A DNA stretch of 64,000 bases, taken from the NCBI GenBank assembly GCA_038203955.1, contig JBBRDK010000006.1:946-64945 (forward strand), in the 5' to 3' direction. Both the position numbers and the translations under genes were made by a program. Positions 32,346 through 59,006 of the stretch are shown piece by piece. Below the pieces are notes generated by a model. The model was not told the DNA's origin. It worked only from the letters and a program-made list of their open reading frames with translations, and searched no databases. The first letter of the stretch is position 1; every line of letters begins with the position of its first letter. Source of the DNA: Thermoanaerobaculia bacterium (GTDB lineage Bacteria; Acidobacteriota; Thermoanaerobaculia; UBA5066; Gp7-AA6).

Positions 32346-32379
32346 TCGAAACGCGGGCTGCGGCTTTTCCGGTTCCGCC

Positions 32380-36147: not shown

Positions 36148-36237
36148 CTCGTTCCTCCTGTCTTGTGCTGGCTCGGCTGAGTGGTTGGATTCGATTATGC
36201 GCCCGCCCGGCGCCGGAGCGATTGGTAGGATGGCCGC

Positions 36238-37547: not shown

Positions 37548-37598
37548 CTCCGGCCTCTTCGCTGCGACGGCACTCCGGCCTCTTTCGCTGCGACGGCA
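37548..37598 (+). repeat. 25/26-nt tandem direct repeat in the cluster leader region
   Basis: CTCCGGCCTCTTCGCTGCGACGGCA (37548-37572) and CTCCGGCCTCTTTCGCTGCGACGGCA (37573-37598). They are identical apart from one extra T. Confidence 0.85.
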
Positions 37599-37625
37599 CT
37601 TCTGTTATACTTCACCGTCACAGCT

Positions 37626-37727
37626 ATGAACAACAAATGCGCAACGGCGGGTACCTCCCGGGCGAAGGTCCGTCTGTGTGGGGCGCGCTTTGTTCTTTCG
37701 CTGACCAGGTCGACGCCGGCTCTCTGA
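37626..37727 (+). CDS. possible 33-aa upstream ORF (module copy A)
   Basis: [33 protein letters not shown]. Its N-terminus is shared with copies C and D. It has no SD, and third-position GC is only moderate. Confidence 0.25.
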   Translation: MNNKCATAGTSRAKVRLCGARFVLSLTRSTPAL

Positions 37728-37884
37728 GCTGAACGATGAAAAGCAAAGCGCAACGGCGGGTACCTCCCGGGCGAAGTTCTGCCTGCCTGCGCTGCATCTC
37801 TTCTTCTTCGGATACGGGCCGCTGAAGCTCCGACCGACTCATGAAAAACCTAAATGCGACGGCGGGTACCTCCCCGGCGAAGGT
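37626..37884 (+). repeat. three tandem copies (spacing about 105-110 nt) of a conserved 44-nt ATG-initiated module
   Basis: A 37626 ATGAACAACAAATGCGCAACGGCGGGTACCTCCCGGGCGAAGGT. B 37736 ATGAAAAGCAAA-GCGCAACGGCGGGTACCTCCCGGGCGAAGTT. C 37841 ATGAAAAACCTAAATGCGACGGCGGGTACCTCCCCGGCGAAGGT. A fourth copy lies at 55582. Confidence 0.9.
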
Positions 37885-38011
37885 TTGTGCTGGGCGGCGA
37901 TCAAGAGCTTCGTTTTCTGAGCAGCTAGACGCGGCGCACCGCGCCGTTTGTGGCGATCGCCCGACTCCCTGGATTCCCCGGGGGGCGGATGCGGAGTCGT
38001 GCCGCCCATGA
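37841..38011 (+). CDS. possible 56-aa upstream ORF (module copy C), stop overlapping the start of the hydroxylase gene
   Basis: MKNLNATAGTSPAKVCAGRR...ESCRP*. It is below the 60-aa track cut-off. Its TGA (38009-38011) overlaps ATG 38008 as ATGA, the same coupling seen at nine other junctions in this window. Confidence 0.4.
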   Translation: MKNLNATAGTSPAKVCAGRRSRASFSEQLDAAHRAVCGDRPTPWIPRGADAESCRP

Positions 38012-39597
38012 CCCCCAAAGTCTTCCTGCGCCAGAACGCGCTGGCCGAGCCTCTCTTCAACCGGTGGTACGCGTGGCCCTACCTCGTCTCCCCCGTGACG
38101 GCGCCGATGTACGTCGGCAATCTCCACCTGCGCCTGATGGAATCGTTCGTCGCCAATCCGCAAGTCCACATCGCGGCGCTCAAGAACCCGGAGATGTCGG
38201 GAGGCCCCTTCCTGAGCCTCGATGAGAGCAAGGTCCCCGCCGTGGAGCGGTTGATCGACAAGACACGGCGCCAAAGCGCGCCTTTGCTCGAGTTCGCGGA
38301 CGCCGTCCGCGATCTGACACGGATCCTGATGACCCGGGCGGACGGAGCTTCGCTGCATCCGTTCTATGCGGAGGTGCCCGAGCCGCTCAAGGGCTTCGTG
38401 GAGCTCGTCTACGACGTCAACAACCACCCGGGGATCCGCTTCCTCGAGTCGCTCCTGTACTTCAGTCCCTATTACGACGAGGAAGCCCAGAGCCTCGATT
38501 TCTCCGTCGTGAATGGGGACGACCGCGCATTCGTCTTCAGCACCCCCCGGCTGGAGGAAGACGATCGCCTGCATCTGTCGCTGCCCTATCGCGCCGAGGG
38601 CCTCGACCGCGTCTTCCGCATGCGGGAGAAGCCGCAGCCGCTCGGTTTCGCGACCGAGGCGCTTGGATTGTCCGGCCCGGACGACGGGCGATTCAAAGGG
38701 TTGTTCACGGATCAGCCTCCCCGCCTCGCGGAGCCGCGGGATCCGGAAGGGGTCCGCGTCCGCTATTTCGGGCACGCCTGCGTCCTGATCGAGACCCGGG
38801 ACACGACGATTCTTACAGACCCGGTCATCGGTTACGAGCACGGCCGGGGAGCCGCGAGGTTTTCCTTCGCGGACCTGCCCGCCCGCATCGACTACGTCCT
38901 CATCACCCACGCTCACCAGGATCACTGCATGTTGGAGACGCTTCTCCCGCTTCGTCACAAGGTGGGCGAGATCATCGTGCCGCGAAACAGCGGAGGCGGT
39001 CTCGCCGACCCGTCCCTGAAGCTGGCGCTCCAGAGCGCGGGATTTTCCAATGTCAGCGAAATCGACGAGCTCGGCCGCGTCGAGACGGCGGACGGCTCGA
39101 TTACGAGCATTCCGTTTTTCGGGGAACACGGCGACTTGAACATTCGCAGCAAGACGACCTACCTCGTTCGACTTCTCGGCAAATCCTTTCTCTTCTGCGC
39201 AGACTCCAATGCCGTTGAGCCCACGCTGTACGACCACTTGAGCGACATTGTGGGAGACCTCGATGTCGCCTTCATCGGGATGGAATGCGACGGCGCGCCC
39301 ATGAGCTGGCTCTATGGACCCGTGGTGACCGCCCCTCTCACGCGCCGGATGGACCAGTCGAGGCGCCTGGACGCCTCCGACTGCGAGCGCGGAATGGAGC
39401 TCGTGAAGCGTCTTCGCCCGCGGACGGTCTACGTCTACGCCATGGGATCGGAACCATGGCTGACGTATCTGACGTCGATTCATTACACGGAGCAGTCCCG
39501 GCCCATCGTGCAAGCGCGCGCGCTCGTCGCGCGATGCCGGACGCTCGGAATCTGCGCCGAGACGCTCTTCGGGAAGAAAGAGCTGCAGCTCGGATGA
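38008..39597 (+). CDS. CmlA-like non-haem di-iron beta-hydroxylase (metallo-beta-lactamase fold with N-terminal domain)
   Basis: C-terminal MBL fold with ITHAHQDHC (HxHxDH, 38908-38925) and ..FFGEHGD... A ~250-aa N-terminal domain starts ..FLRQNALAEPLFNRWYAWPYLVSP... It is directly coupled (ATGA) to a stand-alone A-T protein, the arrangement known for CmlA/CmlP. The start ATG 38008 was chosen; TTG 37948 (the track start) is an alternative. Confidence 0.75.
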   Translation: MTPKVFLRQNALAEPLFNRWYAWPYLVSPVTAPMYVGNLHLRLMESFVANPQVHIAALKNPEMSGGPFLSLDESKVPAVERLIDKTRRQSAPLLEFADAVRDLTRILMTRADGASLHPFYAEVPEPLKGFVELVYDVNNHPGIRFLESLLYFSPYYDEEAQSLDFSVVNGDDRAFVFSTPRLEEDDRLHLSLPYRAEGLDRVFRMREKPQPLGFATEALGLSGPDDGRFKGLFTDQPPRLAEPRDPEGVRVRYFGHACVLIETRDTTILTDPVIGYEHGRGAARFSFADLPARIDYVLITHAHQDHCMLETLLPLRHKVGEIIVPRNSGGGLADPSLKLALQSAGFSNVSEIDELGRVETADGSITSIPFFGEHGDLNIRSKTTYLVRLLGKSFLFCADSNAVEPTLYDHLSDIVGDLDVAFIGMECDGAPMSWLYGPVVTAPLTRRMDQSRRLDASDCERGMELVKRLRPRTVYVYAMGSEPWLTYLTSIHYTEQSRPIVQARALVARCRTLGICAETLFGKKELQLG

Positions 39598-41561
39598 CAC
39601 CCCAGGCCGCGGGCGGCGACGCGAAGAGCGCGAATCCGGCGTTCTCCCGCCTGACTCCGGAGGAGGCGCGTTTCGTCCAAGCGTGGAATGACACCCGGAG
39701 GGACTATCCCCGTGACGAGACCATTCCGGCGCTCTTCGAGCGGGAAGTTCGGCGCTCGCCCGGCGCGACCGCGCTCGTCTCCGCGGAGGATGGGCGAACG
39801 CTGACCTACGACGCCCTCAATCGGCGGGCCAACCAGCTCGCCCGTCACCTGCGGGACCTCGGCGTCCGGCCGGAGATGCGGGTCGCGATTCACCTCGAGC
39901 GGTCGTTCGACGCGGTCGTCTCGATGCTCGCGATCCTGAAAGCCGGCGGCGCTTACGTTCCGCTCGATCCGCGCCTGCCGTTGAAGCGCGCCTCTCACGT
40001 CCTCGAAGACTCCGGGGCCTCCGTCGTGCTGAGCGTCGAGCCCCTGGCGGATGCGCTGCCCGCGGTCTGGGCCCGCCTCATCTGCCTCGACTCCGACGCG
40101 GGGGCGATTGCGCGGCAGAGCGACGCGAATCCGCCTCGCGCCGGTTCGGCGCTGGGCCTGGCGCACATTCTCTACACGTCGGGCTCGACCGGAGCGCCCA
40201 AGGGCGTGGCGGTGGTCCATCGCGGGGTCGTCCGCCTGGTCCGCGGGACGGACTTCGCCCACCTCGGCCCGGACGAGGTCTTCCTTCAGGCCGCGCCTTT
40301 GTCCTTCGACGCCTCGACGTTCGAGATCTGGGGCGCGCTGTTGAACGGCGGTCGCCTCGTGATCCTCTCTGCGCAGACCCCCGGCCTGGACGACCTCGCG
40401 GAAGCGATCCGGGCGCACGCTGTGACGACTCTCTGGCTCACCGCGGGACTCTTCCATCTCGCGGTCGACCAGCGGCTGTCGGATTTGAAACCTCTGCGCC
40501 AGCTTCTGGCCGGCGGCGATGTTCTCTCCCCGCCGAGAGTCCGGCGCGTGCTGGAAGAGATTCCCGGCTGCGCGCTCGTGAACGGCTACGGCCCCACGGA
40601 GAGCACGACCTTCGCCGCCTGCCACGTCATCCGCTCGCTGCCCGCGAGTGCCGCCACCGTGCCGATCGGGCGGCCCATCGCCAACACACAGATCTATCTC
40701 CTGGATTCCGAGCGCCGGTGGGTCCCGCCCGGTGAGACAGGGGAGCTGTACATCGGCGGTGATGGTCTGGCGCGCGGCTATTGGAACAGCCCGGAGCGGA
40801 CCGCCGAGAGTTTCGTGAAGTCCCCTTTCGACGCGGAAGCCGACGCGCGCCTCTATCGAACGGGGGATCTGGCGCGCCTGCTCCCGGACGGCAATCTCGA
40901 ATTCCTCGGCCGTGCCGACCACCAGATCAAGGTCCAGGGCTTTCGAGTCGAGCTTTCCGAGATCGAATCGGCGCTCGCCCGCCACGCGGCCGTCTCCTGC
41001 AACGTCGTCGACGCCCGGCAGACGTCGGCGGGCGGCCAGAGGCTCGTCGCCTACGTCGTTCTCCGTCCGGGAGAGGAGGCAAGCGACGCCGAGCTCCGCG
41101 CGTTTTTGCAGCAGGAGCTTCCGGAATACATGGTGCCCCCCGCCTTCGTGCGCCTCTCCTCGCTTCCGCTCACGGGCAACGGCAAAGTGGACCGGCGCGC
41201 CCTTCCGGAACCGGTGGGGGCCTCCGCCGGGACCGCGTCTCCCCCGCGCTCCATGACAGAAGAGACGATCGCGCAGGTCTGGCGGTCCGTTCTCGACCTC
41301 GAGGCGATCGATTGCGACGAGAACTTCTTCGACCTCGGAGGCAATTCGCTTCTTCTGATCGACGCTCACGCCAGGCTCCAAAAACTTCTCGCGATTTCCA
41401 TGCCCATCACGACGCTCTTCGAATATCCGACAGTCCGATCCCTCGCACGTTCTCTCGCCAGCGGCCCGGCTCCCGACGAGTCGCTGCAGGCGTTGCGGGA
41501 ACGGGTCCGGCAGAGGCGCCAGGTATGCGATCGCCGTCCCACACCGGAGCCCGCGTCGTGA
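39594..41561 (+). CDS. stand-alone NRPS adenylation-thiolation (A-T) loading protein
   Basis: [39 protein letters not shown] (40173-40205), NGYGPTEST, GELYIGGDGLARGY, YRTGD, VQGFRVELSEIE, NGKVDRRALP, and T-domain LGGNSLL (Ser codon 41346-41348). ATG overlaps the upstream stop (ATGA). Confidence 0.9.
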   Translation: MTPQAAGGDAKSANPAFSRLTPEEARFVQAWNDTRRDYPRDETIPALFEREVRRSPGATALVSAEDGRTLTYDALNRRANQLARHLRDLGVRPEMRVAIHLERSFDAVVSMLAILKAGGAYVPLDPRLPLKRASHVLEDSGASVVLSVEPLADALPAVWARLICLDSDAGAIARQSDANPPRAGSALGLAHILYTSGSTGAPKGVAVVHRGVVRLVRGTDFAHLGPDEVFLQAAPLSFDASTFEIWGALLNGGRLVILSAQTPGLDDLAEAIRAHAVTTLWLTAGLFHLAVDQRLSDLKPLRQLLAGGDVLSPPRVRRVLEEIPGCALVNGYGPTESTTFAACHVIRSLPASAATVPIGRPIANTQIYLLDSERRWVPPGETGELYIGGDGLARGYWNSPERTAESFVKSPFDAEADARLYRTGDLARLLPDGNLEFLGRADHQIKVQGFRVELSEIESALARHAAVSCNVVDARQTSAGGQRLVAYVVLRPGEEASDAELRAFLQQELPEYMVPPAFVRLSSLPLTGNGKVDRRALPEPVGASAGTASPPRSMTEETIAQVWRSVLDLEAIDCDENFFDLGGNSLLLIDAHARLQKLLAISMPITTLFEYPTVRSLARSLASGPAPDESLQALRERVRQRRQVCDRRPTPEPAS

Positions 41562-44500
41562 GCGGTGTGCGAGACGGCAATCTGCGGGACGCGATTGCGA
41601 TTGTGGGGATGGCGGGGCGTTTTCCCGGCGCGGATTCGGTCTCGCACTTATGGGAGAACCTCCAGGCGGGCCGCGAATCGATCTCCGTTCTCACCGACGC
41701 GGAGCTGCTCGAATCCGGGATCGACGCTTCCATGCTCGCCGACCCGCTGTATGTCAAGGCGCGGGGCGTGTTGGAGGACGTCGATCTCTTCGACGCATCC
41801 TTCTTCGGATTCACTCCCAAAGAGGCGGAGTTGACGGATCCGCAGCACCGGCTTTTTTTAGAGACGTGCTGGCGCGCGCTCGAGGACGCGGGCTGCAATC
41901 CGGAGGCCTTCGACGGTGCGATCGGCGTCTTCGGCGGAATGAGCATGAACACGTATCTGCTCGCGGCCCGCGGGAAGGACCCCGGTTTCTGGAAGGATCT
42001 CACCGAGTCCTACCAGATCGGTGAATACCCCTCCGTGCTGGGAAACGACTACAACTTTCTGGCAACGAGGGTCTCCTACAAGCTGAACCTGACGGGACCG
42101 AGCCTGGACGTCCAGACGGGATGCTCGACTTCTCTCGTGGCGGTCTGTCTGGCGTGCCGAGCGCTCCTGCAGCACGATTGCGACGCCGCGCTGGCCGGAG
42201 GGGTCTCGATCACCTTCCCGCAGAAGAGGGGCTACCTCTACCAGGAAGGGGCGATGGGCTCTCCGGACGGCAAGTGCCGTGCGTTCGACGCGGCCGCCGG
42301 AGGGACGGTGTTCGGGTCCGGAGTCGGGATCGTGGTCTTGAAGCGGCTCTCCGATGCCGTCGCGAACAGAGACTCCATTGTCGCGGTGATCCGCGGATTC
42401 GCGTTGAACAACGACGGGGCGTCCAAGGTCGGTTACATGGCGCCGAGCGTCGAAGGCCAGGCCGCAGTGATCGCGACGGCGCAGGCTGTCGCCGATGTGG
42501 ACGCCGAGTCGATTGGATACGTCGAGACGCACGGAACGGGGACGCCGCTCGGGGACCCGATCGAGATCGCCGGGCTGACCCGAGCCTTTCGGTCCGCGAC
42601 GAGCGCGAAGGGATTCTGCGCGATCGGGTCGGTCAAGCCGAACGTCGGCCATCTGGATATCGCTTCCGGGGTCACGGGTCTGATGAAGGCGGCGCTCGCC
42701 GTCCGCACGGGCCGGATTCCGCCGAGCCTCCATTTCGAGCGATCCAATCCCGCCATCGACTTCGCGGACTCGCCGTTCTTCGTGAACACGCAACTCTCCG
42801 AGTGGAGCAACACCGCCCGCCCGCGCCGCGCGGGGGTGAGTGCCTTCGGCGTCGGGGGCACAAACGCCCACGTGGTCCTCGAAGAGGCCCCCGTGCCCGA
42901 ACCTCCCGCCATCCGCTCCTGCGAGCTTCTGGTGCTCTCGGCGAAGACGCCCACCGGGCTCGACGCGGCCGCGGCGAATCTCGCTCGCCATCTGGCCGAG
43001 AAACCGGAAGCGAACCTCGGTAACGTGGCCTTCACGCTGCAGGCGGGCCGCAAGAACTTCGCCCACCGGCGCGCTCTCGTTTGCGCGGACGTCGCGGAGG
43101 CGGTCTCTGATCTGACGCGTCCCTCCGGACGAGCGGTGGCCCGGGGCGGGGACGTTCCCGTCTCCTCGGTCGCGTTCCTGTTTCCCGGCCAGGGATCACA
43201 GTACCCGGGCATGGCCCGGGAGATCTACGAGAGTGAAGAGCGGTTCAGGCAGGAGGTCGACCTCTGCGTCGGCCTGCTTGGGCCGGAGCTCGCGAAGAAC
43301 CTGCGCGATCTTCTGCTCGCGCCCCCGGCAGAGGGCGAGCCTTCGGAGAAGAGCGCGATCCACCGAACGGGGCTGGCCCAGCCCGCCCTTTTCGTCGTCG
43401 AATACGCGCTCGCGCGGCTCTGGGAGAGCTGGGGCGTTCGTCCGTCGGCGATGCTCGGGCACAGCGTCGGCGAATTCGTCGCAGCCACGCTCGCCGGCGT
43501 CTTCTCCCTCGAAGATGCGCTGGCGCTCGTGGCGGCGCGCGGACGGATGATCGAAGAACTCCCCGAGGGATCGATGCTCGCCGTCCGGATGGAAGAAGGG
43601 CAACTGGCCACGGTGGCGCGTCCAGGGCTCTCCCTCGCCGCGGTCAACGCGCCCTCGCTCTGCGTGCTGTCGGGCCCGCCGGACGTCATCGATGGTCTGC
43701 AGAAAGAGCTGGCGGAGCGGGGAATCGCCCAGCGCCGGCTTCAGACATCCCATGCTTTCCATTCCGAAATGATGGATCCCGTCGTCGCCCCCTTCGAGGA
43801 TCTCGTGAACAGTGTCCGTCTCCAGCCGCCGTCGATCCCGATCGTTTCGGGCGTGACGGGAACGTGGGTCCGGGCCGAGGAGGCGACCGACCCCGCGTAC
43901 TGGAGCGCCCATCTGCGAAAACCCGTCCATTTCGCCCGCGGCGTCGCGACGCTCTTGAATGAAAAGGGCCGGGCCCTCCTGGAAGTCGGCCCCGGTCAGA
44001 CTCTTTCCCTGCACGCGAAGCGTCATCCGGCGAAGACCTCCGGACATGTCGTTCTCTCCTCTCTGGGCCATCCGGAGAATCGCGAGTCCGAACGGGCGTG
44101 CCTCCTGCGCGCGGCGGGGCAACTGTGGGTCTCCCGGGTCGCGATCGACTGGCAGGGACTCCAGGCGGGAAGGGATTTGGGCCGCGTCCCTCTTCCGACC
44201 TACCCCTTCGAGAGGAGCCGCCACTGGATCGGGACGCGACTGGAGGACACCACCTCCGGCATCGGTACCCACGGCGGCCCCCAAATCGCGTCTCTGCCAA
44301 CCCGGGCCGAGGGGGCCGTCGCCTTTCCAACGAAAGCGGAGTTGCCAATGATGAACGACGCCAACCCCGCCTCTGCGGCTTTTCGCCATCCCCGGCTTCT
44401 CTCGAGAGTCCAGAAAGTGTTCGGCGATCTCGCCGGCCTGCCGCCCGGAGAAGTCCCGCCTTCCGCGACTTTTCTCGAGGCCGGTTTCGACTCGCTCTTC

Positions 44501-47500
44501 CTGACGCAGGCGAGCCAGCACCTCCAGAAGGAGTTCGGAATTCGCATCGCCTTTCGTCAACTCCTGGGAGATCAGTCGACACCCGACGCCCTTGCCAGCT
44601 TCCTCGACGCGCAGCTGCCCGCCGAAATCGCGCTCCTGACCCCGACTTCCGTGGCGGCGGTAGCCGAACCCCCGGCGAATTCCCCGCGGCCGGCGGCCGG
44701 CGCGGCGCCCGCAGCCGGATCTTCGGGCGTTCTCGAGCGTATTTTGACGGAGCAGCTGCGCGTCATGTCTCGCCAGCTTGAGATGCTTCGCGGCGACATC
44801 CCGGAGCTCGCGCCGCCGGAGGAGACGGCCTCCGTCCCGACGACGTCGCTTCCGAATCCAGAGGGGCCCGTACCGGCGCAGTTTGAGTCTGCCGGCGAAA
44901 AGCCAGCCTTCAAGCCCTTCGGTCCCTACAAGCCGATCGAGAGAGGCGCCGGAGACGCTCTCTCGGAGACGGCCCGGCGGTATCTGACGGGTTTTATCGA
45001 GCGTTACTCGCGTAAGACGGCGAAGTCGAAGCGGCTCGCCGAGGAGCACCGCTCCCATTTCGCCGACCCGCGGGTCGTGGCGGGGTTCCGCCGCGACTGG
45101 AAGGAAATCGTCTACCCGATCGTGGCGACGGGCTCTTCGGGCTCGCGCATCCGGGACGTGGACGGGAACGAATACGTCGACCTCCTGATGGGATTCGGCC
45201 TGAACCTCTTCGGACATTCGCCGTCGTTCGTGACCGAGGCCGTCGCCGAACAGCTTCGTAAGGGCGTCGAGATCGGGCCGCAGTCCCCTCTCGCGGGGGA
45301 GGTGGCGCGTCTCATCAGCGAGTTCACTGGAATGGAGCGGGTGACCTTCTGCAATACGGGCTCCGAAGCCGTGATGGCCGCGATCCGCCTGGCCCGTACC
45401 GTGACGGGCCGCGACCCGATCGCGCTCTTTTCCGGCGCATACCACGGCACATTCGACGAGGTCCTCGTGAGAGGCGTGCGCTCCGGAGGTGTCCACAAGT
45501 CCTTTCCCATCGCACCGGGCATCCCCGCCGCGAAGGTCGAGAACGTCCTCGTGCTCGACTACGGAACCGAGGAATCGCTGCGGATCCTCGAATCCCGGAT
45601 TGGCCAGCTGGCGGCCATTCTGGTCGAGCCGGTTCAGAGCCGGCACCCCGATCTCCAGCCGCGGGAGTTTCTCCGGAAACTGCGGGAGATGACCGAGAAA
45701 TCCGGAACGGCGCTCATCTTCGATGAAGTGATCACGGGCTTTCGAGTCCATCCGGGAGGCGCTCAGGCGTGGTTCGGAATCCAGGCCGATCTCGCGACCT
45801 ACGGGAAGGTGCTCGGCGGCGGTCTGCCTCTCGGGGTCGTCGCCGGAAAAGGCGCTTTCATGGACGCTTTGGACGGCGGCATCTGGCAGTTCGGAGACGA
45901 CTCGTTCCCCGAGACCGGCGTGACCTTCTTTGCGGGGACCTTCGTGAGACATCCACTCGCGATGGCCGCCGCGCTGGCGGTGCTCCATCGGCTGAAGGCT
46001 GCCGGGCCCTCCCTCCAGGAAGGGTTGAACGACAAAGCCGCGTGGTTGGCGGGAGAGTTGAACGCCGTCTTCGAAAGAAATCACGTCCCGAGCCGCGTCG
46101 AGCACTTCGGCTCGATTCTCTATTTCGGGTTTTCGAACGATCACCGACTCGCGAGCCTGCTCTTCTATCATCTTCGCGAAAAAGGCGTGCACATCTGGGA
46201 GGGTTTCCCCTGCTTCGTTACAGAAGCGCACAGCCAGGAAGACCTCGAGTTCATCGTGCGCTCCTTTGACGCAAGCGCCACTGAGATGAGGGCGGGAGGA
46301 CTTCTGCCGTCTTCCGACGACGGGAGAGGGCGTGGCGATGCGGTCCCACGACCCATGGAAGTCGTTGCCGCGACCGCGCCGGAGAGCCCCGATTCCGCCG
46401 CCTCTTCGTTGACCGAATCCCAGAAGGAGGTCTGGCTCGCGTGCCAGATGGGATCCGAAGCTTCCTGTGCGTTCAACGAGGGCATCTCGCTCCGGTTTCG
46501 CGGAACTCTCGAGGTTTCGGCCCTGCGCGAGGCGCTCCAGGATCTCGTTGACCGGCATGACGCCCTGCGCACGAAGTTCGACGCGGATGGGGAACTGCAG
46601 CGCGTGGTAGCGGCGGCGAGCGTCCCGCTGACGATCACGGATCTATCGGAATGGAAGCGCGGGGACGCGCAAGTGCGGAGCAGGCAGATCGTGCTCGAGG
46701 AGGCACGGACTCCCTTCGATCTGACGCGCGGACCGCTCCTCCGCGGCCGACTCGTACGCCTCGCGACTGACCTTCACGATCTCGTGCTGACGGCCCACCA
46801 TCTCGCCTCCGATGGCTGGTCGACGAACGTGCTTCTCAGGGAGCTCGCCTCCCTCTATTCCGCACGGCGAGAGTCAATCGCAAACGACCTGCCCGCCGCG
46901 TCGCGCTTTCGCGATTTTGCCGCGCGCGAGGCGGCGCGGCGCAGAGGTCCGAAGGCCTCCGCGACCGAGGCGTACTGGCTGGGCGAGTTTGCGTCCCCGG
47001 CGCCCGTGTTGGATCTGCCGACGGACCGGCCGCGTCCGGCTGTCAAGACGTATGCGGGAGCGACGATCCGACGGACGGTTTCCGGCTCGCTCGCAAAGGC
47101 GGTGCGTCAGGCCGGTGCCCGAGAAGGATGTACGCTTTTTGCGACTCTGTTTGCGGTGTTTACGGCCCTTCTCCACCGCCTGACGGGGCAAGAAGATCTG
47201 GTGGTCGGGATCCCCGCCGCGGGCCAGGCCGGAGACGGCTGCGAGGACGTCGTCGGACACTGCGTCAACTTCCTGCCGATTCGCTCGCGCGCGCCGAAGG
47301 ATGTCGAGTTCCGAACACACTTGCGGTCCATCCGGAAGACGATTCTGGACGCCTTCGAGCACCAGGACTATACGTACGGCAGTCTCATCCAGGCGCTGGC
47401 GCTTCCGCGCGATCCGAGCCGTCTGCCGCTGATCGAGGCGCAATTCAACCTCGAGCGGGTTGGAGCCGGCTCGGATTGGAGCGGCCTTGCCGTGGACGTG

Positions 47501-50500
47501 GACACTAACCCGAAGTCTTTCGTCAACGACGACGTCTTCTTGAATGTCGTCGAGACGGCGGATGGCCTGGTTCTCGACTGCGACTTCAATACCGATCTCT
47601 TCGACGCCGGGACGGTCGAGCGGTGGCTGGGATACTTCGAGAAGCTCCTCGAGGGAATCGTCGAGGACGCCTCCCGGTCGCTTTCGGCCCTGCCCCTGTG
47701 CGGCGAGGCGGAGCGTAAACAGGTGCTGGTCGAATGGAATCGCACCCGGCGGCGGCTTTCGAAGGCCGGGTGCGCGCATCAGCTCTTCGAAGTGCAGGCG
47801 CTTCGGGCGCCGGAGGCGATCGCTCTCTCCTTCCGGGACGAGCGGGTGACCTACGCGGAATTGAACGTCCGCGCGAACCGGCTGGCGAATCACCTCGCGA
47901 GCTTCGGAGTCGCCCGTGGCGTCGTCGTGGGCCTGTGCCTGGAGCGCTCTCCCGACCTCGTGGTCGCGATTCTGGCGATCCTGAAGGCCGGAGGAGCCTA
48001 CGTCCCGCTCGATCCCTCGCACCCATCGGAGCGCCGCGCCGCGATCCTCGAGGACGTGGGCGCGCCGTTCCTCCTCATAGACGAAGACGAAGACGTTCCC
48101 GTTCCGGCGGCGACCCGGGTCATCCGGCTGCGCGCGGAACGCGAAAAAATCTCGGAGGCGAGCGCCGAGACGCCAGGGGCCACGCCGGCCGCGGAGGACC
48201 TGGCGTACGTGATCTACACATCCGGGTCGACGGGAAAACCGAAGGGCGTCGCCATAGCGCACCGGTCCCTCGTGAACCTGCTCGAAGCCATGCGAGAGAG
48301 TCCCGGGATCGGTCGCACCGATACCCTCCTCGCAGTCACGACTGTGTCCTTCGACATCGCGGCGCTCGAGTTGCTCCTGCCGCTGACGGCGGGGGCGCGA
48401 ACCGCTCTCGCTCCGCCGGAAGCCTCTTCCGACGGCAGCCGGCTGTCCGAAGAGCTGTTTCGCTCCCAAGCCACGATCCTTCAGGCGACGCCCGCCACGT
48501 GGCGGCTCTTGATCGACTCGGGGTGGAAGGGTCAGTCGAATCTGAAGTTGCTCTGCGGCGGAGAACCTCTGTCTCGCGACCTGGCGGACGCCCTCCTCGC
48601 CCGTGGCGGCTCCCTCTGGAACATGTATGGTCCCACGGAGACGACGATCTGGTCCGCGGCTGGACGGGTCGCCGCCGGCGAGGGCGCGCCCCGCATCGGA
48701 CCGCCGATCGCGAACACCCGACTCTATGTCCTCGACGAAGAGCTTCGGCCCGTGCCCATCGGGGTCCGGGGTGAGGTCTTCATCGGAGGAGAGGGTCTCG
48801 CGAGGGGCTACTGGAAGCTGCCGGAGCTTACCGAAAGAAACTTCCTTCCCGATCCCTTCCGGAGCGAACGGGGAGCTCGGCTCTACCGGACCGGCGACCT
48901 TGGCCGTTTCCGGTCCGATGGGACGATTGAGCTCTCCGGCCGGCGAGACCGGCAAGTCAAAGTCCGGGGATACCGCATCGAGCTTTCCGAGGTCGAAGCC
49001 GCGCTCTCGAGCCATGCGGCCGTGCGGGAAGCCGCCGTGACGGTTCGCGAAGACTCGCCTGGCGACAGGAGACTCGTTGCGTACATTGTCCCCGAGGCAG
49101 CCGATCTGCGCGACGTCGAGGCCGAGTGGCAGGCGGAGATGAGCGCCCAGTGGCGCGCGCAATACGGCTCGGCGATTCGGGAGCGCGATCCCGGGAGCGA
49201 TGCGCATCCGGATCCGTCCCTGAGCCTCTACGGCTGGACTGGCCTCGGCAACGTCGCCGAAGAGCTCGACGCATGGCTCGCTCCGATCGCCGAGGAGATC
49301 CTCGCCTGGAGTCCCCGGCGCGTCCTCGAGATCGGATGCGGCACCGGGCTGCTGCTCGAAAGGCTGGCTCCCGCATGCCGGTTTTACTCGGGCACGGATC
49401 TGTCGGAGGAGGCGCTCGACAGCCTACGCGCCCGCCTGGCATTGTCGGACCTCCCGGCGAAACGAGTCGGGCTCCGGCGCCGGATGGCGGACGATTTCGA
49501 GGGAATCGAGCCCGGGTCGTTCGACACCGTGATCGTCAACTCGGTCGTGGAGTACCTGCCGAGCGTCGAGTCTCTGTTACGGGTCGTCGAAGGCGCGATC
49601 CGGACCGTCGGGAAGGGCGGGCGCGTTTTCCTGGGGGATGTCCCGAGCCTGCCGATGTGGGAAACCTTTCACGCGGCGGCCCAGCTCGCGCACGCTTCCG
49701 ACGAGCTTCCCGTCAAAGAGCTCTCGGAGCGGGTGCGCCACGCGGTCTCGCAGGGGAGCCGTCTGCTGGTCGATCCCGACTTTTTCCGGGCGCTCAAACA
49801 CAGCGTTCCGGGGATTGACCGTGTCGAAGTGCGGCTCTCGCGGGGCCGATTTTCGGACGAAGCGTCGCGACTCCACGCCGACGCCTATTACGACGTAATC
49901 CTTCACGTCGGTGAGCCGACTCCGGACAAAGGCCAGGTCGGGCGAGAGCGCGTGACGCTCGATTGGGAAGAAGAACCCCTGGCCCTGTCCACCCTCGAAA
50001 CTCTCTTCACGGCGGAGACGGACTCGGTCCTCGTGCTGGGAGTCCCGATTCTCCGTCTGGTGGCGCAAGCGAAGACGCTCGAGCTGCTCGAGACCGGAGA
50101 GGGAGGCGTCGCGGAGACGGTCGGCGACCTTCGGGAGCGCCTGCGAGACGTGTCGGGCGCCGACCTCGCACCAATCGGGGATCTCGCCGAGAGTCGAGGC
50201 TACTCGATGGACAGGGTCTGGTCCGGCTCGGGACGTTCCGGCCGTTGCGATCTGCTTTTCCGGCGCGCTCTTGCGAAGACCGGCGTGAGTCTGTCTCCCG
50301 GACTGTCGAAAGAGGTCCCGGGGCCGAGGCCGTGGCATGAGTACGCCAACAGTCCCGCGCGCTCGGCGCTCGCGCGCCGTCTCGTGCCGGAGCTCCGGTC
50401 GTTCGTCAAGCAGAAGTTGCCCGCCTTCATGGTGCCGGCCGCGATCGAGATCCTCGAAGTGCTGCCCCTCACCGCAAACGGCAAGGTGGACCATCGTGCG

Positions 50501-50854
50501 CTGCCGCGGCCGCAGCGTCTCCACGCGCTGGCGGAGGAGACTTTTCGGGCCCCTCGGACCGAACGCGAGAGAACCCTCGCGGCGATCTGGGCCGAAGTCC
50601 TGCATCTCGATCGGGTCGGAATTTGCGACGACGTCTTCGATCTCGGCGGCGATTCGCTCTTGATCTTCCAGATCTCGACACGCGCGAACCGGGCGGGCTT
50701 CGAAATCGCCCCGAGAGATCTCTTTGCGCACCGCACCATTCTGGAGCTCACACAAGCCCTCGCGATGAAAGAGAGCGAGCCGTCGGCGCCCGAGCGGACT
50801 CCCCTGGTGGCGATGTCTCGCGACGCGCATCGAGTGAGGCGGGCGAGCTTGTGA
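41558..50854 (+). CDS. hybrid PKS-NRPS megasynthase: KS-AT-ACP-aminotransferase-C-A(embedded MT)-T
   Basis: The GTG start overlaps the upstream stop (GTGA); the track start 40781 is an over-extension. KS: [13 protein letters not shown] (41591), active Cys in [10 protein letters not shown] (42122-24), [14 protein letters not shown]: FPGQGSQ, GHSVGE (Ser 43463-65), HAFH (43751-62). ACP: GFDSL (Ser 44492-94). Class-III PLP aminotransferase: [14 protein letters not shown] (Lys 45806-08). C: HHLASDGW (46796-46816). A: [11 protein letters not shown] (48215-47), [20 protein letters not shown]: VLEIGCGTG (49322-48), lying between ..RLVAYIVP and LPAFMVP. T: GGDSL (Ser 50654-56). No KR, DH or ER domain. 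Confidence 0.95.
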
Positions 50855-50894
50855 TTTACGAGAAGAAGGCCGGGACTCCGGCATAGCGATCCGA

Positions 50895-53800
50895 ATGGGA
50901 AGACCTGCTCGGTCCCTGGCGCCTCCCGCCGCGGAGACATCACCGGTTGCTGCCGCCGCGACAGAGGACGTCTTCGTTTTTCCCGCGTCATTCGCCCAGC
51001 AGCGTTTCTGGTTCGTCGATCAATACAACCCCGGGACCACCGCGTACTGCCTTCCGATCCTGCTGCGCGTCGCCGGGAACCTCAATCCGAACGTCCTCGA
51101 GCGGGTCTTGAACGAGATTGTCCGGCGTCACGAGATCCTCAGGACGACGTTTTCCCTGTCGCAGTGGGAGCTCGTGCAGGTGATCTCCCCGTCGGCTCGC
51201 CTGACGCTGCCTCTCGTCGACCTGTCGTACATTCCCGAGCCGGAGCGCGAAGCGCGCGCCTTCGATCAGGCGCGGGAAGAGAGCCGGAGAGCCTTCGACC
51301 TGCGTCAGGGACCGCTCTTCCGGGCTCATCTCTGGCGGCTGTCCGATCGCGATCATCTGTTCCTGCTCGACATGCATCACATCGTTGCGGACGGGTGGTC
51401 CTTCTCCGTCCTGCTCCACGAGCTCGCCGTTCTCTACGATGCTTTTGAGAAGGGCCGCGACTCGCCGCTGCCGGACTTATCCATCCAATACGCGGATTTC
51501 GCTCAGTGGCAACGCGATCGGACGCAGGAGGAGGGACAGGATGGCGATCTCTCCTTCTGGAAAGCGGAACTTGCGGGAGCGCCTCCGATGCTCGATTTGC
51601 GGTCGGACCACCCGCGGCCATCGCGACAGACCTTTTCCGGAGCCTACGAGACCGAGCTCCTGCCCGCCGGTCTGACCCACAGGATCAAAGCTTTGTCCCG
51701 ACGAGAGGGCTTCACGCCTTTCATGACCCTGCTGGCCGCCTTCTTCGCGGTCCTCTACCGTTACACGGGCCAGACCGACATGGTTGTGGGCTCGCCCATC
51801 GCAAATCGCTCCCGCTTCGAGCTCGAGCCTCTCATCGGCCTCTTCATGAACACGCTCGTCCTCCGCGCCGACCTTTCCGGAAACCCGACCTTCCGTGAGC
51901 TCCTCGCTCGAGTCGGGCGCGTCTGTGTGGGCGCCTATTCGCACCAGGACATGCCGTTCGAGAAGCTCGTCGAAGAGCTCAAGCCGCCGAGAGATCCGAG
52001 TCGCAATCCCGTTTTTCAATCGATGTTCGTGTATCAGAAAGCCTTCATTCAGCCCTTCGCGGCAGGAGACCTCCGATTCACACCGATCAAGGCGGACCGT
52101 GGCGGCGCATTGACGGATCTCTCCCTGTTCGTCATCGACCGGCAAGACGGTTTCACGACCGGCATCGAGCACAACACCGACCTGTTCGATGCCTCCTCGA
52201 TCCGACGCATGCTCGGTCATTTCCGCACTCTGCTCCAGGCGGTCGTAGAGAATCCCGAGCTCCGGATCGATGCGATCCCGTTGTTGACGCCTGTCGAGCG
52301 CCGCCAGTTGCTCATCGAGTGGAACGAGACCGAATCCGAATTTCCGAAGGACCAGTGCCTGCACCAGCTCTTCGAGGCACAGGTCGAGAAGACTCCCGAC
52401 GCGGTTGCGCTTCTGTTCGAAGGACACGGATTGACCTACCGCGAATTAAACGCCCGCTCCAATCGTCTGGCCCGGTATCTCGCCCGGATGGGCGTGGGGC
52501 CGGAAACGCGAGCCGGCGTCTGCTTGCCGCGGTCCCCCGAGATGGTCATCGGACTGCTGGCGGTTCTGAAGGCGGGCGGCGCCTATATCCCGCTCGACCC
52601 CGCCTACCCGCGCGAACGATTGGCGTTCCTGCTCGAAGACGCAGCCCCTTCCGTCGTTGTGTCGCAGGGCACGATCGCCGGAGCGATCCCCTTTGCCGGA
52701 AGCGTCGTCTCTCTGGACTCGATCGGCCGGCAACTCGACCGAGAATGCGAGGAAAACCTGGCAAACGGCGTCACGCCCGATGACCTCGCCTATCTGATCT
52801 ACACCTCGGGGTCGACAGGCAGGCCGAAGGCCGCCATGATTCCGCATCGAGGCGTCGTCAACTACCTGACGTGGTGCGTCCCCGCCTACTCGGTCGCATC
52901 CGGCCGGGGGGCGCCGGTGCAGTCCCCCCTCTCCTTCGATCTGACGGTGACCTCGCTTTTTGCGCCGCTCGTCTGTGGCGGGACGGTGCATCTCCTCGCC
53001 GAAAAGCCGGCAGGGGCGGCGCTCGCCGAGCTGTTTGACGAACCCGGAGACTGGAGTCTCGTCAAGACGACACCGACCGAGCTCGAGCTCTTGAGCCGGC
53101 AGGTCATGGCCGGGAACGCTTCCAGGCGAACGCGCGCCTTCGTGGTGGGAGGCGAGAGCCTGGCGGGCGAGATGCTCGGCTTCTGGCGCGGCGCGGCTCC
53201 GGACACGAAAGTCTTCAACGAGTACGGTCCGACGGAAACCGTCGTCGGATGCTGCGTCTACGAGGTCGGCGCGGCACCCCACGCCGGGCCGGTTCCGATC
53301 GGCCGCCCGATCGCGAACACGCGGCTCTACATTCTCGGGCCGGACGGGCAGCCGGTTCCGATCGGCGTCGTCGGAGAGCTCTGCATCGCCGGAGCCGGGG
53401 TGGCGCGAGGATACTGGAACCGGCCGGATCTGACGGCCGAACGGTTCGTTCCCGACCCGTTCGGGAAGCCCGGCTCCCGGATGTACCGCTCAGGCGATTT
53501 CGCGCGATACCGGTCCGACGGGAACATCGAATACGTGGGACGCCGCGACTCGCAGGTGAAGCTGCGGGGCTATCGCATCGAGCTCGGAGAGATCGAGGCG
53601 GCGCTCGAAGGACATCCAGCGGTGCGCCGGTCCGCGGTGCTCGCGCGGGAAGATGCGCCAGGCGAGAAGAGGCTCGTGGCCTATGTGGAGGCGGGACCGG
53701 CGAGCGCGGTGACCGAGACGCAGCTTCGCGCCTTCCTGAAGGAAAGGTTGCCGGCGCACATGGTTCCGTCGGCGTTCCTGATTCTCGAGAGCCTTCCTCA

Positions 53801-54968
53801 GAGCCCGAACGGAAAGATCGATCGACGAGCCTTGCCCGCACCCGCTCCGACCTCCCGGGAAAAGGAGGCGGGCCGCATCGCTCCGTCCGACCCCGTGGAA
53901 GTCCGGCTGGCGGCGATCTGGGAAGACGTCCTCGGCGTGCGCGGCATCGGCGTCCGCGACGACTACTTCGACCTGGGGGGACACTCGCTGCTGGCTATCA
54001 AACTCTTCTCGCGGATCAGAAACGTCTTTGGACGGCATCTGCCGCTCGCGACGATCTTTCAGGCGCCGACAATCGAACGGCTTGCCGGGATCATCCGGCA
54101 GGAGGGTTGGAAGCCGTCCTGGTTCTCGCTCGTGCCGATCCAGCCGCTCGGCGCGAAGACGCCTCTGTACCTGATTCACGCAGGCGGGGGCAACGTGCTC
54201 TTTTATATGGATCTCGTTCGCCACCTGCGCCGCGACCAGCCCGTGTACGGGTTACAGGCTAGGGACCTGACGGAAAAGGGGAGGCGCGCAGAACGTCTTG
54301 AAGAGATGGCCGCGTTTTACGTCAAGGAGATCCGAGAGTTTCAGCCGGAAGGGCCGTACTACCTCGGGGGGGCTTCCTATGGGGGCCTGATCGCATTCGA
54401 GATGGCGCAACAGCTTCTTCGGCAGGGACAGGAGGTCGGCATGGTCGCGCTGCTGGACACCTGGGGGCCCGATTATCCAAGCCGCCATCCCGACGAACAC
54501 TCGCTCCGAGTCCGTCTGATCCGGCTGTCGGAACGAGTGTCCCTCCACGTCGGCAACATTATTGCGACGGAGGGGAACCGCGCGAAAGCCGGTTACGTCA
54601 CGTGGAAGACCAGCGTCCTGCTGGACACGATGCGCAAGGAGATGCTGCGCCGCGCCGAAAGGGTTCGGAAACTCCTGGGGCTCCCTCGAGCCTTCCGCGT
54701 GCTGGAGGCTCGCATCGGAGAGGCCAAATCCCGTTATGTTCCGCAGGTCTATGCCGGCAGGTTGACGCTCTTTCGGGCGACCACGCAGCCGGCGGGATAC
54801 GGCTACGACGGGGATCTCGGATGGACACGCGTCGCGCGCGGCGGCGTGGAAGTGCACGAGATCCCCGGTCACCACGGCTCCATCGTCCACGAGCCGCGAG
54901 TCCCGATTCTGGCAGAGCGGTTGACGCGCTGCCTGGACGAGCTCGCTGCGAATAAATCCTCGGCTTAA
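50895..54968 (+). CDS. NRPS termination module C-A-T-TE
   Basis: C: [19 protein letters not shown] (51375-95). A: [52 protein letters not shown]: GGHSLL. TE: ..[11 protein letters not shown].., GGASYGG (Ser 54375-77). Confidence 0.95.
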
Positions 54969-55581: not shown

Positions 55582-55806
55582 ATGAACAATCAAGACGCAA
55601 CGCCGGGTACCTCCCGAGCGAAGGTCTGCGTCGAGCGCCTTGCCGGGGGTTTCGATCGGTCCCTGCGGGACCTGATCGCACACTGCCGCTCGGCTGAGGC
55701 GGGAGGCTACAGGCCATCGGACGTTCCGACGGCCCGCTTGAGCCCGAAGGACCTCGACAAACTCGTCGCGGAAGTCAAAACCTCCGATCCGCGCCCTCGC
55801 CAGTGA
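55582..55806 (+). CDS. 74-aa ORF: module-copy-D N-terminus fused to a tail that resembles the end of an NRPS epimerization domain; stop overlaps the NRPS start
   Basis: MNNQDATPGTSRAKVCVERLAGGFDRSLRDLIAHCRSAEAGGYRPSDVPTARLSPKDLDKLVAEVKTSDPRPRQ*. Fairly high third-position GC. TGA 55804-06 overlaps GTG 55803 (GTGA). The first 44 nt match the modules at 37626/37736/37841. Confidence 0.5.
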   Translation: MNNQDATPGTSRAKVCVERLAGGFDRSLRDLIAHCRSAEAGGYRPSDVPTARLSPKDLDKLVAEVKTSDPRPRQ

Positions 55807-58800: not shown

Positions 58801-59006
58801 TTGGGACGCAGATCATCTCTCGCGTCCGAGAGGCTTGTCGCGTCGAGCTGCCGTTGCGCGCTCTCTTCGAGAGTCGGACCGTGGCGGGCCTCGCTCGCGA
58901 AATCGAAAATATAAGATCGAGAAACGCGGTGGACTCGACCGTGCGACTCGTCCCGGTGTCGCGGGAGGGACGGCGTATGAAGCGATCCGACCTCCCGATA
59001 GATTGA
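55803..59006 (+). CDS. NRPS module C-A-T without release domain (orphan, downstream of the TE module)
   Basis: C: FEDVYELSPMQQGLLFH start, with the active-site motif degenerate as QHLVLDRWS (56229-49). A: LSYRELNERANRLARFL, YTSGSTGLPKG (57646-78), NLAGEPL, DLYGPTEDT, YRTGD, NGKLDRKALP. T: GGHSLL. Confidence 0.9.
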   Translation: MKPAPFEDVYELSPMQQGLLFHTLYDPAADPYFKQSVLTLRGDLDGERFAQAWQRVAARHVILRTSFHWEGLEKPVQVVHPNAQVPVESLDCRGLSLDAQQHRLEVFLLEDRKKGFDLASQPLLRVTLLRTAEDLHECVLSFQHLVLDRWSRSLVLREVFAEYAAGSRGEDAGLSPAVSYGEYIAWIQGTDRSGAEAFWRSALAGFTRPTSVRLDGRSDPPSAQGFEEASIRLSPQVSATLQSFARRHRLTLNTLIQGAWAVLASRYSGEEDVLFGATVSGRPASLPEVESMVGLFINTLPVRVRVPQSGKLIDWLRRLQEEFLELRQYEHSSLVDIQGWSEVPRGTPLFESLVVFENVGGDFDSLSGDGPLKVLRFRSPGGWTNYPLTLLALPGERLFLRILFDRSVFDAPSILRMLGHLATLLEGMAADPDQPLSRLPLLTQLERRHLLFDWNQTARAFPHEKTVHGLFEEQAQESPDAQAVVFDQQRLSYRELNERANRLARFLRRQGVGPEVLVGLCVERSVEMVVGILGILKAGGAYVPLDPHYPRERVAFMLEDSGVSVLLTQRSLADAHADGPFKRVNLDTERVPIEKESGENLESGARPENLVYVIYTSGSTGLPKGVAIEHRSTVALLTWAREFFHRGELKGVLASTSVCFDLSVFELFAPLVSGGSVILSRNVLELPELAARSEVTLVNTVPSAMAELLRIGGLPESVATVNLAGEPLATALVDQIAGGARARRVFDLYGPTEDTTYSTCALREIGGAATIGRPISNKRAYILDSQNEPVPVGVEGDLNVAGAGVARGYLNRPELTRERFLPDPFHPGERMYRTGDRARFLPDGNLQFAGRLDQQIKIRGYRIEIGEIETVLSAHPDVRECAVAARRDPTSGDRLVAYVVWGAGQPARNDLRLFLKRSLPDYMIPSDFLFLDSLPLTPNGKLDRKALPAPEQKRPVPEDSFVAPRTSVEDVVAGIWAEVLGLQPVGVEDDFFVLGGHSLLGTQIISRVREACRVELPLRALFESRTVAGLAREIENIRSRNAVDSTVRLVPVSREGRRMKRSDLPID

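Follow-up and report, generated by a model that had tools for sequence, protein, structure and literature searches.

The window analyzed in the present work is a stretch of 64,000 nucleotides (64 kb) of contig JBBRDK010000006.1 from a Thermoanaerobaculia bacterium of the phylum Acidobacteriota, and it contains a biosynthetic cluster of nonribosomal peptide synthetase (NRPS) and polyketide synthase (PKS) genes. In the leader of this cluster, upstream of the gene for a CmlA-like beta-hydroxylase, a short module headed by ATG is repeated three times in tandem, and a fourth copy precedes an orphan NRPS gene. Each copy opens a mini-ORF (ORF, open reading frame), here called A, B, C, and D, and each carries the same 12-mer at a nearly fixed distance from its ATG. 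The features directly concerned are the following.

37548..37600, + strand: tandem 25/26-nt direct repeat, CTCCGGCCTCTT(T)CGCTGCGACGGCACT x2, found by a repeat search; it covers the likely -35 region
37603..37611, + strand: extended -10-like element TG-T-TATACT, TGTTATACT, read directly; it ends 14 nt before the first ATG
37626..37727, + strand: mini-ORF A, 33 aa; 12-mer CGGGTACCTCCC at 37648-37659; TGA stop 8 nt before the ATG of B
37736..37825, + strand: mini-ORF B, 29 aa; 12-mer at 37757-37768; stop 15 nt before the ATG of C
37841..38011, + strand: mini-ORF C, 56 aa; 12-mer at 37863-37874; ATGA at 38008-38011 shared with the hydroxylase start
38008..39597, + strand: CmlA-like diiron beta-hydroxylase, first gene of the operon (Pfam CmlA_N, 3e-85, plus metallo-beta-lactamase domains)
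55582..55806, + strand: mini-ORF D, 74 aa; 12-mer at 55604-55615; GTGA at 55803-55806 shared with the NRPS start
55803..59006, + strand: orphan C-A-T NRPS module behind mini-ORF D (Pfam Condensation, AMP-binding, PP-binding)

A scan of the window finds the 24-nt core of the module, ACGSCGGGTACCTCCCSRGCGAAG, at positions 37644, 37753, 37859, and 55600, always on the + strand and with 0 mismatches. The core is absent from all of 100 dinucleotide-preserving shuffles of the window (0 occurrences expected by chance), and an nhmmer search with a profile of 21 units finds no fifth copy in the 64 kb. A first-pass annotation of this DNA had described four + strand copies headed by ATG, and these are recovered here at 37626, 37736, 37841, and 55582. 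Its account of the junctions is also borne out: ORF C runs into the hydroxylase gene through an ATGA overlap (stop codon at 38009-38011, hydroxylase ATG at 38008), ORF D is joined to the following NRPS gene through GTGA (stop codon at 55804-55806, GTG at 55803), and NTGA junctions of the same type link bona fide gene pairs of the window, for example at 39594, 41558, 23265, and 25653. Direct reading of the sequence agrees with it, too, that no Shine-Dalgarno (SD) sequence precedes any of the window copies. The extent it gave to the module has to be revised, the conserved unit reaching further 5' to include the extended -10-like element, which is kept in relatives.

Occurrence in Related Loci

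A scan of 185,579 genomes, one per species, with the pattern CGGGTACCTCCCNNGCGAAG gives 18 hits, against ~17 estimated by chance, and two of these contain the full module including the ATG. One is a metagenome-assembled genome of the Thermoanaerobaculia (locus L002), the other a metagenome-assembled genome of the Acidobacteriota (L016), and both matches lie in NRPS loci. A metagenome scan returns 45 loci, of which 13 are true matches, all at orthologous leaders. Further loci were retrieved by protein homology to the hydroxylase and to a response regulator, independently of the DNA pattern, and every one of them carries the module. The total thereby rises to 37 modules, which come from 21 loci of independent assemblies and all seem to belong to Acidobacteriota. 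In 251 kb of pattern-independent loci plus the window, 24/24 occurrences of GGGTACCTCC have the sense orientation and are preceded by an ATG at a distance of 23-25 nt.

Since the loci of relatives carry the module, and carry it tied to ATGs, it is neither a dispersed repeat nor peculiar to this genome. The first-pass annotation had allowed that its finding would be weakened if the core were a generic repeat scattered over unrelated sites or were missing from homologous clusters; the true matches of the metagenome scan are all at orthologous leaders, and the clusters of relatives do carry the module. Repetitive extragenic palindromic elements, miniature inverted-repeat transposable elements, and CRISPR repeats were considered and rejected on copy number and context in the species and metagenome scans.

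The module is found in two settings. In the first, arrays of 1-3 copies precede orthologous CmlA-like hydroxylase operons, with three tandem modules in the window, L016, and L076, two in L024, L034, L054, L065, L066, L067, and L077, at least two in L056, where the contig end cuts the array, and a single one in L069, joined to the hydroxylase via a linker. The hydroxylases of the module-bearing lineages are only 69-83% identical. Two modules stand ahead of an NRPS gene in L002, and window copy D is a single module in such a position. In the second group of loci, one module lies in the leader of a gene for a NarL-type response regulator (REC+GerE), where it is kept in 8 variants, down to 64% protein identity. 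In L056, on the reverse strand, the hydroxylase frame breaks into unrelated sequence (…CTCGCCAATGCAACCGAACGAGATAGG…) ~170 nt in, which could reflect a disrupted gene or a chimeric contig.

Conservation of the Module

The module consists of the ATG, an A-rich tract of rare codons (~20 nt), an ATG-to-GGTACC spacing of 23, 24, or 25 nt, and the near-invariant 12-mer CGGGTACCTCCC, which spans +23 to +34 counted from the A of AUG. The ATG is present in 37/37 modules. GGTACC follows it at 24 nt in most modules (22), less often at 25 nt (9) or 23 nt (6), and CGGGTACCTCC is intact in 34/37. In an alignment of 32 modules, the columns of ATG and CGGGTACC are invariant, and TCC is nearly so. The block GGCGAAGG that follows the core is common, but it is replaced in modules L076_1, L076_2, and L077_1, and we therefore take the 12-mer at +23 to +34 as the universal core.

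The class with the 23-nt spacing comprises window copy B, L056_1 (the ortholog of mini-ORF B, of equal length and equal frame), L016_2, L002_2, L067_2, and L076_1. The first-pass annotation had regarded copy B as carrying a 1-nt deletion. Copy B is indeed 1 nt shorter between ATG and core, which puts the core in another frame (RVPPGR), but because this spacing and frame recur in relatives, the "deletion" is a recurrent tolerated state rather than an error.

The same core bases are thus read in three frames, as GTSRAK, GYLPGG, or RVPPGR, the commonest frame encoding MxNxNAxxGTSxAK. The codon GGT makes up 7% of the Gly codons in window genes, yet it is invariant in the module, and other codons that are rare in window genes (GCA 5%, GTA 2%, CTA 0%) are abundant there. 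The fraction of A at +4 to +21 is 0.42, compared to 0.158 for the window. The earlier remark that substitutions are not biased to third positions holds between lineages, since the mini-ORFs differ at the three codon positions by 11/10/11 (window vs L056) and 8/10/10 (L024 vs L034), the count for the hydroxylase gene being 6/4/23. In these close pairs, the mini-ORFs are 81-83% identical, versus 94% for the adjacent hydroxylase gene. No conserved peptide under purifying selection, as would characterize an arrest or sensor peptide, is found over these comparisons, which show three frames, even substitutions, and evolution faster than that of the neighboring gene. A peptide-level database search matched only ORF D with a padded profile, the 17-aa profile itself being too short.

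RNA structure does not account for the conservation either. At gathering threshold, Rfam 15 matches only tRNA-Lys in the window. A search of 37300-38100 at E<=10 gives two chance-level hits (17 bits vs gathering scores of 72-80), and six related loci give tRNAs only. The minimum-free-energy folds of the individual units are inconsistent between copies. In the 32-module alignment, a CGGG/CCCG hairpin is 89% paired and an ACCUCC/GRAGGU hairpin 75% paired, with 0 pairs changed on both sides for either of them, and the RNAalifold consensus retains only a 3-bp GGG/CCC stem of -3.3 kcal/mol. The check for base-pair covariation proposed in the first-pass annotation has thereby been made, and it finds no covariation in the 32 modules. 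For intrinsic terminators or attenuators, the search gives two weak 5-bp hits, both in copy A, and none near copy D or on the sense strand of L016. A resemblance to T-box or guanidine-III elements was considered, and Rfam gave it no support.

With three frames, no codon-position bias, and no covarying helix, it is the nucleotides that are conserved, not a peptide or a fold, and in the absence of a fold, of covariation, and of a known family the element is read as linear sequence. The earlier suggestion of a cis-acting element survives in this form. The intact CGGGTACCTCC and the invariance of the rare GGT are in its favor, whereas the palindromes listed with it show no helix-like behavior.

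Stop/Start Relay and the 5' Leader

The mini-ORFs are connected to each other and to the following gene in a regular manner. In 7/7 non-fused lineages the last mini-ORF overlaps the start of the hydroxylase gene, either by ATGA (window/L056 (L056_2), L016_3, L066_2, L067_2, L076_3, and L077_2) or by TTGA (L024_2 and L034_2), and L067_2 keeps the overlap although it is in the other frame. Assuming 1-in-3 per lineage, and with the open frames not counted, we estimate p ~5e-4 for such a register to arise by chance in all seven. The upstream ORF (uORF) of the regulator gene shares an ATGA overlap with the response-regulator gene in L038, L047, L058, L073, and L075, and it stops on the SD sequence in L070 and L072. 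Within the arrays, the stop of the first mini-ORF is located 3 nt before the next ATG (TGA-NNN-ATG) in L002, L016, L024, L034, L054, and L065, the gap being 5-18 nt in the other lineages. The mini-ORFs of the close pairs show 0 indels over 165-171 nt at 81-83% identity. An in-frame fusion, in which the module supplies the hydroxylase N-terminus (…GTSRAKVYLRQNA), is seen in L054, L065, L069, and five further homologs. Two exceptions are noted, namely the L021 lineage, where a 1-nt deletion brings the stop 24 nt early, and L002_2, whose stop is 16 nt ahead of the NRPS ATG.

Stop/start overlaps conserved among relatives, here ATGA, TTGA, and GTGA, are the mark of translational coupling, and translation of the mini-ORFs is strongly supported by this comparison. 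Because the frames are kept despite unconstrained peptides, we conclude that the ATGs most likely function as genuine start codons, with ribosomes passed on from one frame to the next until they reach the first biosynthetic gene. According to the alignments, each mini-ORF keeps its start codon, an open frame, the place of its stop, and the 12-mer, the sequence of the peptide being by all appearances irrelevant. The first-pass annotation had listed conserved leader ORFs, such as arrest or sensor peptides, as one explanation. The relays and the NTGA overlaps uphold the part of it that concerns translation, while the three frames speak against a sensor or arrest peptide.

An element of the form TGnTATnnT is found 11-14 nt before the first ATG in L016, L002, L024, L034, L054, L065, L066, L076, and L077 (as TGATATAAT in the last), and a single related copy of the direct repeat, TTCGCCGACGG, occurs at the same place in L002. 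We infer that TGnTATnnT is an extended -10 promoter, which would give a 5' untranslated region of only a few nt and would place the AUG of the first copy ~5-8 nt from the 5' end of the transcript. Reading of the sequences reveals no conserved internal promoter pattern of the sigma-54 or extracytoplasmic function (ECF) type inside the units. A sigma-54-like GGCAC-N5-TTGC precedes the uORF of the regulator gene (L047 5770-5835; L070, L072, L073, and L075 ~9820-9875), with a conserved TTGTGC-N9-GCACAA palindrome just upstream of it. This GGCAC-N5-TTGC is confined to the regulator-gene uORFs, the cluster leaders having the extended -10 instead.

Proposed Mechanism

We tentatively propose that the module is an SD-less start cassette with a 12-mer that is read in a fixed register to the AUG and that may serve as an RNA polymerase pause and ribosome-loading site resembling ops, the element recognized by RfaH. 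This is a genuine possibility that falls short of being probable. The pause step, taken by itself, is rather doubtful. A more specific version, in which the 12-mer makes up a coupling cassette where the polymerase halts ~34 nt past the SD-less AUG, is possibly held there by a factor, and meets the same signal at every relay re-initiation, must as a whole be called rather unlikely.

In the proposed scheme, RNA polymerase would pause with the RNA 3' end near +34, such that GG occupies -11/-10 and a pyrimidine-G step occupies -1/+1. The AUG and the A-rich tract would at this point be just out of the polymerase, the AUG being ~34 nt away from the active site, a distance that matches a ribosome in direct contact with RNA polymerase (bioRxiv 10.1101/2020.03.01.971028). 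Immediately behind the polymerase, a ribosome could then bind in the absence of an SD or resume at the new start after finishing the preceding mini-ORF, and the signal, repeated at each start, would hold the two machines together up to the hydroxylase start. Such pairing would shield the long operon from polarity. In the more specific version, the head of these giant biosynthetic operons would be the site where transcription-translation coupling is set up on purpose.

The sequence features that suggest this scheme are as follows. Consensus pauses follow the pattern G-10 Y-1 G+1 and have further Gs at the flanks (PMC12820379), and a Y-G step is present at +33 to +36 in 32/37 modules, with GG at -11/-10 in 31. 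The ops element is a 12-nt leader element that matches the pause consensus, and the delay induced by RfaH is thought to aid ribosome recruitment at targets that are without SD and rich in rare codons; moreover, the NusG paralogs LoaP and TaA activate antibiotic operons (PMC7819879). The near-invariance of all 12 bases suggests that a sequence-specific reader is also involved.

A number of observations weigh against the scheme. The pattern G-10 Y-1 G+1 is low in information, and a chance match to it in a GC-rich conserved 20-mer is not unlikely; 5/37 modules have an A after the pyrimidine run (YAG instead of YG). An elemental pause leaves the invariance of TACCTCC unexplained, so that a reader is needed, and among ~45 window ORFs scanned with Pfam and in the gene lists of the related flanking loci neither a NusG paralog (no NusG or KOW domain) nor any other candidate for this role turns up. 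The window ORFs scanned with Pfam contain no cluster-situated regulator. RfaH-type genes can sit elsewhere in the genome. The 12-mer also differs from ops, the response-regulator copies have an SD-like GGAG or GGAAG before the ATG, and a strict -35/-10 consensus scan called no promoter, the placement of the transcription start relying on the conserved TGnTATnnT only.

Alternative Explanations

The main rival is that the core represents a DNA operator of a NarL/GerE-type regulator of the LuxR family, which would provide autoregulation at its own gene and a roadblock at 1-3 sites past the cluster promoter. The ATGs and mini-ORFs would then be by-products of duplicating a gene start that contained the operator. 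The distribution resembles that of a regulon, with the motif in the leaders of the REC+GerE genes (8 variants) and of biosynthetic operons, and in L069 a GerE-family regulator gene is directly upstream of the module-bearing hydroxylase. In the regulator leaders, and only there, the core forms part of an inverted repeat, ACCTCC-N5-GGAGGT, with invariant arms and a spacer of CGGGC, CAGGG, CAGGC, or CAGTG, and the zero compensatory changes fit a sequence that is read by a protein. The half-site TACCTCC may also resemble the NarL heptamer, TACYYMT. Yet the window shows ten-gene synteny with the regulator loci but has no response-regulator gene between the POT and DUF481 genes, and it nevertheless holds four intact modules. 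The operator would leave unexplained why an ATG lies at a fixed 23-25 nt in 37/37 modules when the intervening sequence has fully diverged between the regulator and cluster types, and why frames and stop positions are kept. In addition, cluster copies such as L076_1, L076_2, and L077_1 have a degenerate second half-site or none at all, and the sites are downstream of the promoter, within translated frames. On balance, we consider an operator unlikely.

A second alternative is an anti-SD-like RNA, in which CCUCC would pair with GRAGG or with the downstream SD, or be bound by an RNA-binding protein or a small RNA, so that translation of the mini-ORF gates the downstream start. The sequence ACCUCC is usually followed 5 nt on by GAAGG or GGAGG, forming a perfect 6-bp hairpin in the regulator leaders, and the element is always on the transcribed sense strand within a translated frame. 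The core is also partly complementary to the SD region of the regulator, GGAGGAUCCCG, with a duplex z of -1 to -2.3 in 8/8 regulator loci. The hairpins described above argue against such pairing, however, since neither covaries and RNAalifold keeps just the 3-bp stem, and the one in the cluster copies contains a C·A mismatch or worse, the purine block being gone in L076_1, L076_2, and L077_1. Complementarity to the ribosome-binding region of the hydroxylase gene is inconsistent (z from -3.0 to +1.4), and the fused lineages have no downstream SD to mask. The window has no antisense copy, and no Rfam family matches. Pairing blocks initiation within a window of the first five codons, and a site at +23 falls outside it. 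Masking of the downstream ribosome-binding site by the core, tried as a candidate in its own right, is weakly consistent in the regulator leaders and inconsistent in the cluster leaders, and it was rejected. Pairing with 16S rRNA was rejected as well, the best duplexes being no better than those of shuffled cores (with the E. coli 16S rRNA as proxy, not an acidobacterial one). An RNA of this type is, in our view, distinctly unlikely.

It has also been considered that the modules are functionless remnants of a duplication or recombination of the hydroxylase 5' end, which would look conserved through recent origin or gene conversion. The module does resemble a family-typical hydroxylase N-terminus, as detailed below, and copy D clearly stems from a deletion or fusion event. 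Set against this, the flanks are 81-83% identical or unalignable while the ATG and the 12-mer are invariant across lineages with 69-83%-identical hydroxylases; the module is also found at the unlinked regulator gene; stops and frames are kept in 7/7 lineages; and gene conversion is impossible between different genomes. We thus regard remnants as very unlikely.

That the mini-ORFs encode functional peptides, i.e., arrest or sensor leader peptides, an N-terminal tag, or precursors resembling ribosomally synthesized and post-translationally modified peptides (RiPPs), can practically be dismissed: the peptide of the commonest frame, its use as hydroxylase N-terminus in several lineages, and a PPG motif in the 23-nt frame could be cited for it, but R, P, L, W, and S are all seen at one codon, the three frames, the lack of third-position bias, and the rapid divergence noted above contradict it, the C-terminal parts are unrelated between lineages, and nothing resembling a RiPP precursor gene is seen, with no conserved peptide, no associated peptide-modifying enzymes, and NRPS/PKS, hydroxylase, and phosphopantetheinyl transferase (PPTase) genes as the only neighbors.

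Origin of the Module and of Copy D

Distant hydroxylase homologs (<=62% identity) start like MSSQNAKVYL, and the module reads as such an N-terminus (MxxxNAKVYL) with an insert of ~7 codons, M-x-N-x-N-A-[TPGTSRA]-K-V-Y-L. In 8/22 closest homologs the module is the hydroxylase N-terminus. This resemblance makes it probable that the unit originated within the hydroxylase gene, at its 5' end, and that tandem duplication followed.

Copy D has a different history. Residues 16-61 of ORF D match positions 110-155 of the 155 of NCBIfam TIGR01720, an epimerization-type domain, with E=7e-8. As these are the last 46 positions of that family, ORF D is best described as a module continued in frame by the last part of a truncated NRPS gene, and it retains the native GTGA coupling of that gene to the next NRPS module. 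The remaining explanation of the first-pass annotation, a recombination scar or portable start cassette, thus describes copy D and the hydroxylase-fused lineages well; it does not suit the tandem copies, which are maintained and not decaying.

Genomic Context of the Cluster

The remaining genes of the operon (39594..54968) and the tRNA gene that follows it are listed here; the make-up of the operon was also checked against gene calls on orthologous loci.

39594-41561, + strand: A-T didomain (Pfam); ATGA overlap with the preceding gene
41558-50854, + strand: 3098-aa PKS/NRPS (Pfam); GTGA overlap with the preceding gene
50895-54968, + strand: C-A-T-TE NRPS, last gene of the operon (Pfam)
55067-55143: tRNA-Lys(UUU), between the TE-terminated NRPS gene and ORF D

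Housekeeping genes flank the cluster; those for heme biosynthesis, a POT transporter, and UDG are located on one side, the hutH/hutU pair on the other. The G+C content of the cluster is 63-69%, compared to ~69-72% in most of the upstream flank. Just upstream of the leader, an ORF of 363 aa (36229-37317) has no Pfam hit. In related clusters, a PPTase gene is found just upstream of the module-bearing leader in L065 (7068-7766) and L066 (2436-3185), and several kb further upstream in L069 (778-1521).

In the relatives L070, L072, L073, and L075, the order of genes is hemA-hemC-hemD-hemB-hemL, Na/H exchanger, POT, response regulator (~9600-10900), DUF481, and UDG. The corresponding gap between POT and DUF481 in the window (32342-32547) measures 200 nt and contains neither a response-regulator gene nor a leader module.

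Syntenic loci without the cluster (L047 and L070) have the same tRNA-Lys(UUU) gene at a distance of a few kb from UDG, and the 17-kb cluster thus looks inserted beside a chromosomal tRNA-Lys. A bldA-like link between the AAA/AAC-rich starts and the tRNA at 55067 was rejected, as this tRNA is an ordinary chromosomal neighbor in the cluster-less loci. A stretch of 24 nt in its anticodon arm (55096-55119) recurs at 57538-57561 in the orphan NRPS gene with 88% identity and a 12-nt exact seed, ~1 such match being expected by chance in a region of 5.5 kb. In the ORF at 60316-63999, an "aromatic amino acid lyase", the match to Pfam Lyase_aromatic does not begin before residue 525, and urocanase comes next (63445+). 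This region probably represents hutH-hutU, starting near 61.8 kb, which belongs to histidine catabolism and lies outside the cluster.

Relation to Known Systems

The closest parallel is the ops/JUMPStart element of RfaH and its relatives LoaP and TaA. Like the module 12-mer, ops is 12 nt long, orientation-specific, and conserved in sequence rather than in structure; it is found in the transcribed leader of long operons, antibiotic clusters included, ahead of genes that have no SD and start with rare codons. It fits the GG...YG consensus pause, as the module does by sequence only, and it has been proposed to delay RNA polymerase long enough for a ribosome to load behind it (PMC7819879). The differences are nevertheless clear. 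The module 12-mer and the ops consensus GGCGGTAGYNTG share only the outline GG...TA...YG, and the former is inside a mini-ORF at a fixed 23-25 nt past the AUG, while ops takes a variable position in an untranslated leader. The module is, furthermore, repeated at every relay start and hosted by Acidobacteriota, and no NusG paralog gene is seen near it. With GG at +24/+25 and Y-G at ~+34/+35, the module also fits, by its sequence and by the position of these bases, the elemental pause sites that are enriched near translation starts (G-10 Y-1 G+1; PMC12820379), but it fixes all 12 bases, far beyond the pause consensus.

Leader uORFs of the pyrBI and trp type are alike in that a translated short leader ORF sets downstream expression, with stop/start coupling through NTGA overlaps and a minor role for the peptide. 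The module leaders differ in having no conserved terminator or antiterminator hairpins and no runs of regulatory codons, and in having up to three serial uORFs with the same 12-mer at the same distance from the AUG. As in tandem riboswitches or operators, a unit present 2-3-fold in one leader could sharpen a response; unlike tandem riboswitches, the module has no aptamer-like fold, covariation, or Rfam match. The 7-2-7 heptamer operators of NarL share the half-site-like TACCTCC and an inverted repeat in the leader of a NarL-family regulator, but the module has a spacer of 5 nt, not 2, conserves one half-site in the cluster copies, and is tied to the ATG and to translated frames.

The element would accordingly seem to belong to the known class of leader uORFs and translational coupling, with a logic reminiscent of ops. 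No description of it was found in Rfam 15 or in literature searches, and searching the literature for the sequence itself yielded nothing but primers carrying KpnI sites. Serial mini-ORFs that each carry a near-invariant 12-mer at a fixed distance from an SD-less AUG appear to be undescribed.

Implications

In annotation, mistakes are easily made at the N-termini of these hydroxylases and with small ORFs like D. On the mechanistic side, the fixed register of 23-25 nt between AUG and 12-mer constitutes a concrete geometric prediction. The leaders offer a natural, modular test case for the loading of ribosomes on SD-less starts and for how transcription-translation coupling starts and survives re-initiation.

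Acidobacteriota have many silent clusters in uncultured lineages, and to our knowledge almost nothing is known about how these are switched on. A compact leader cassette composed of a promoter, a near-leaderless SD-less start, the 12-mer, and the relay would be a handle for heterologous expression, which could be used by keeping the cassette, deleting it, or supplying its reader.

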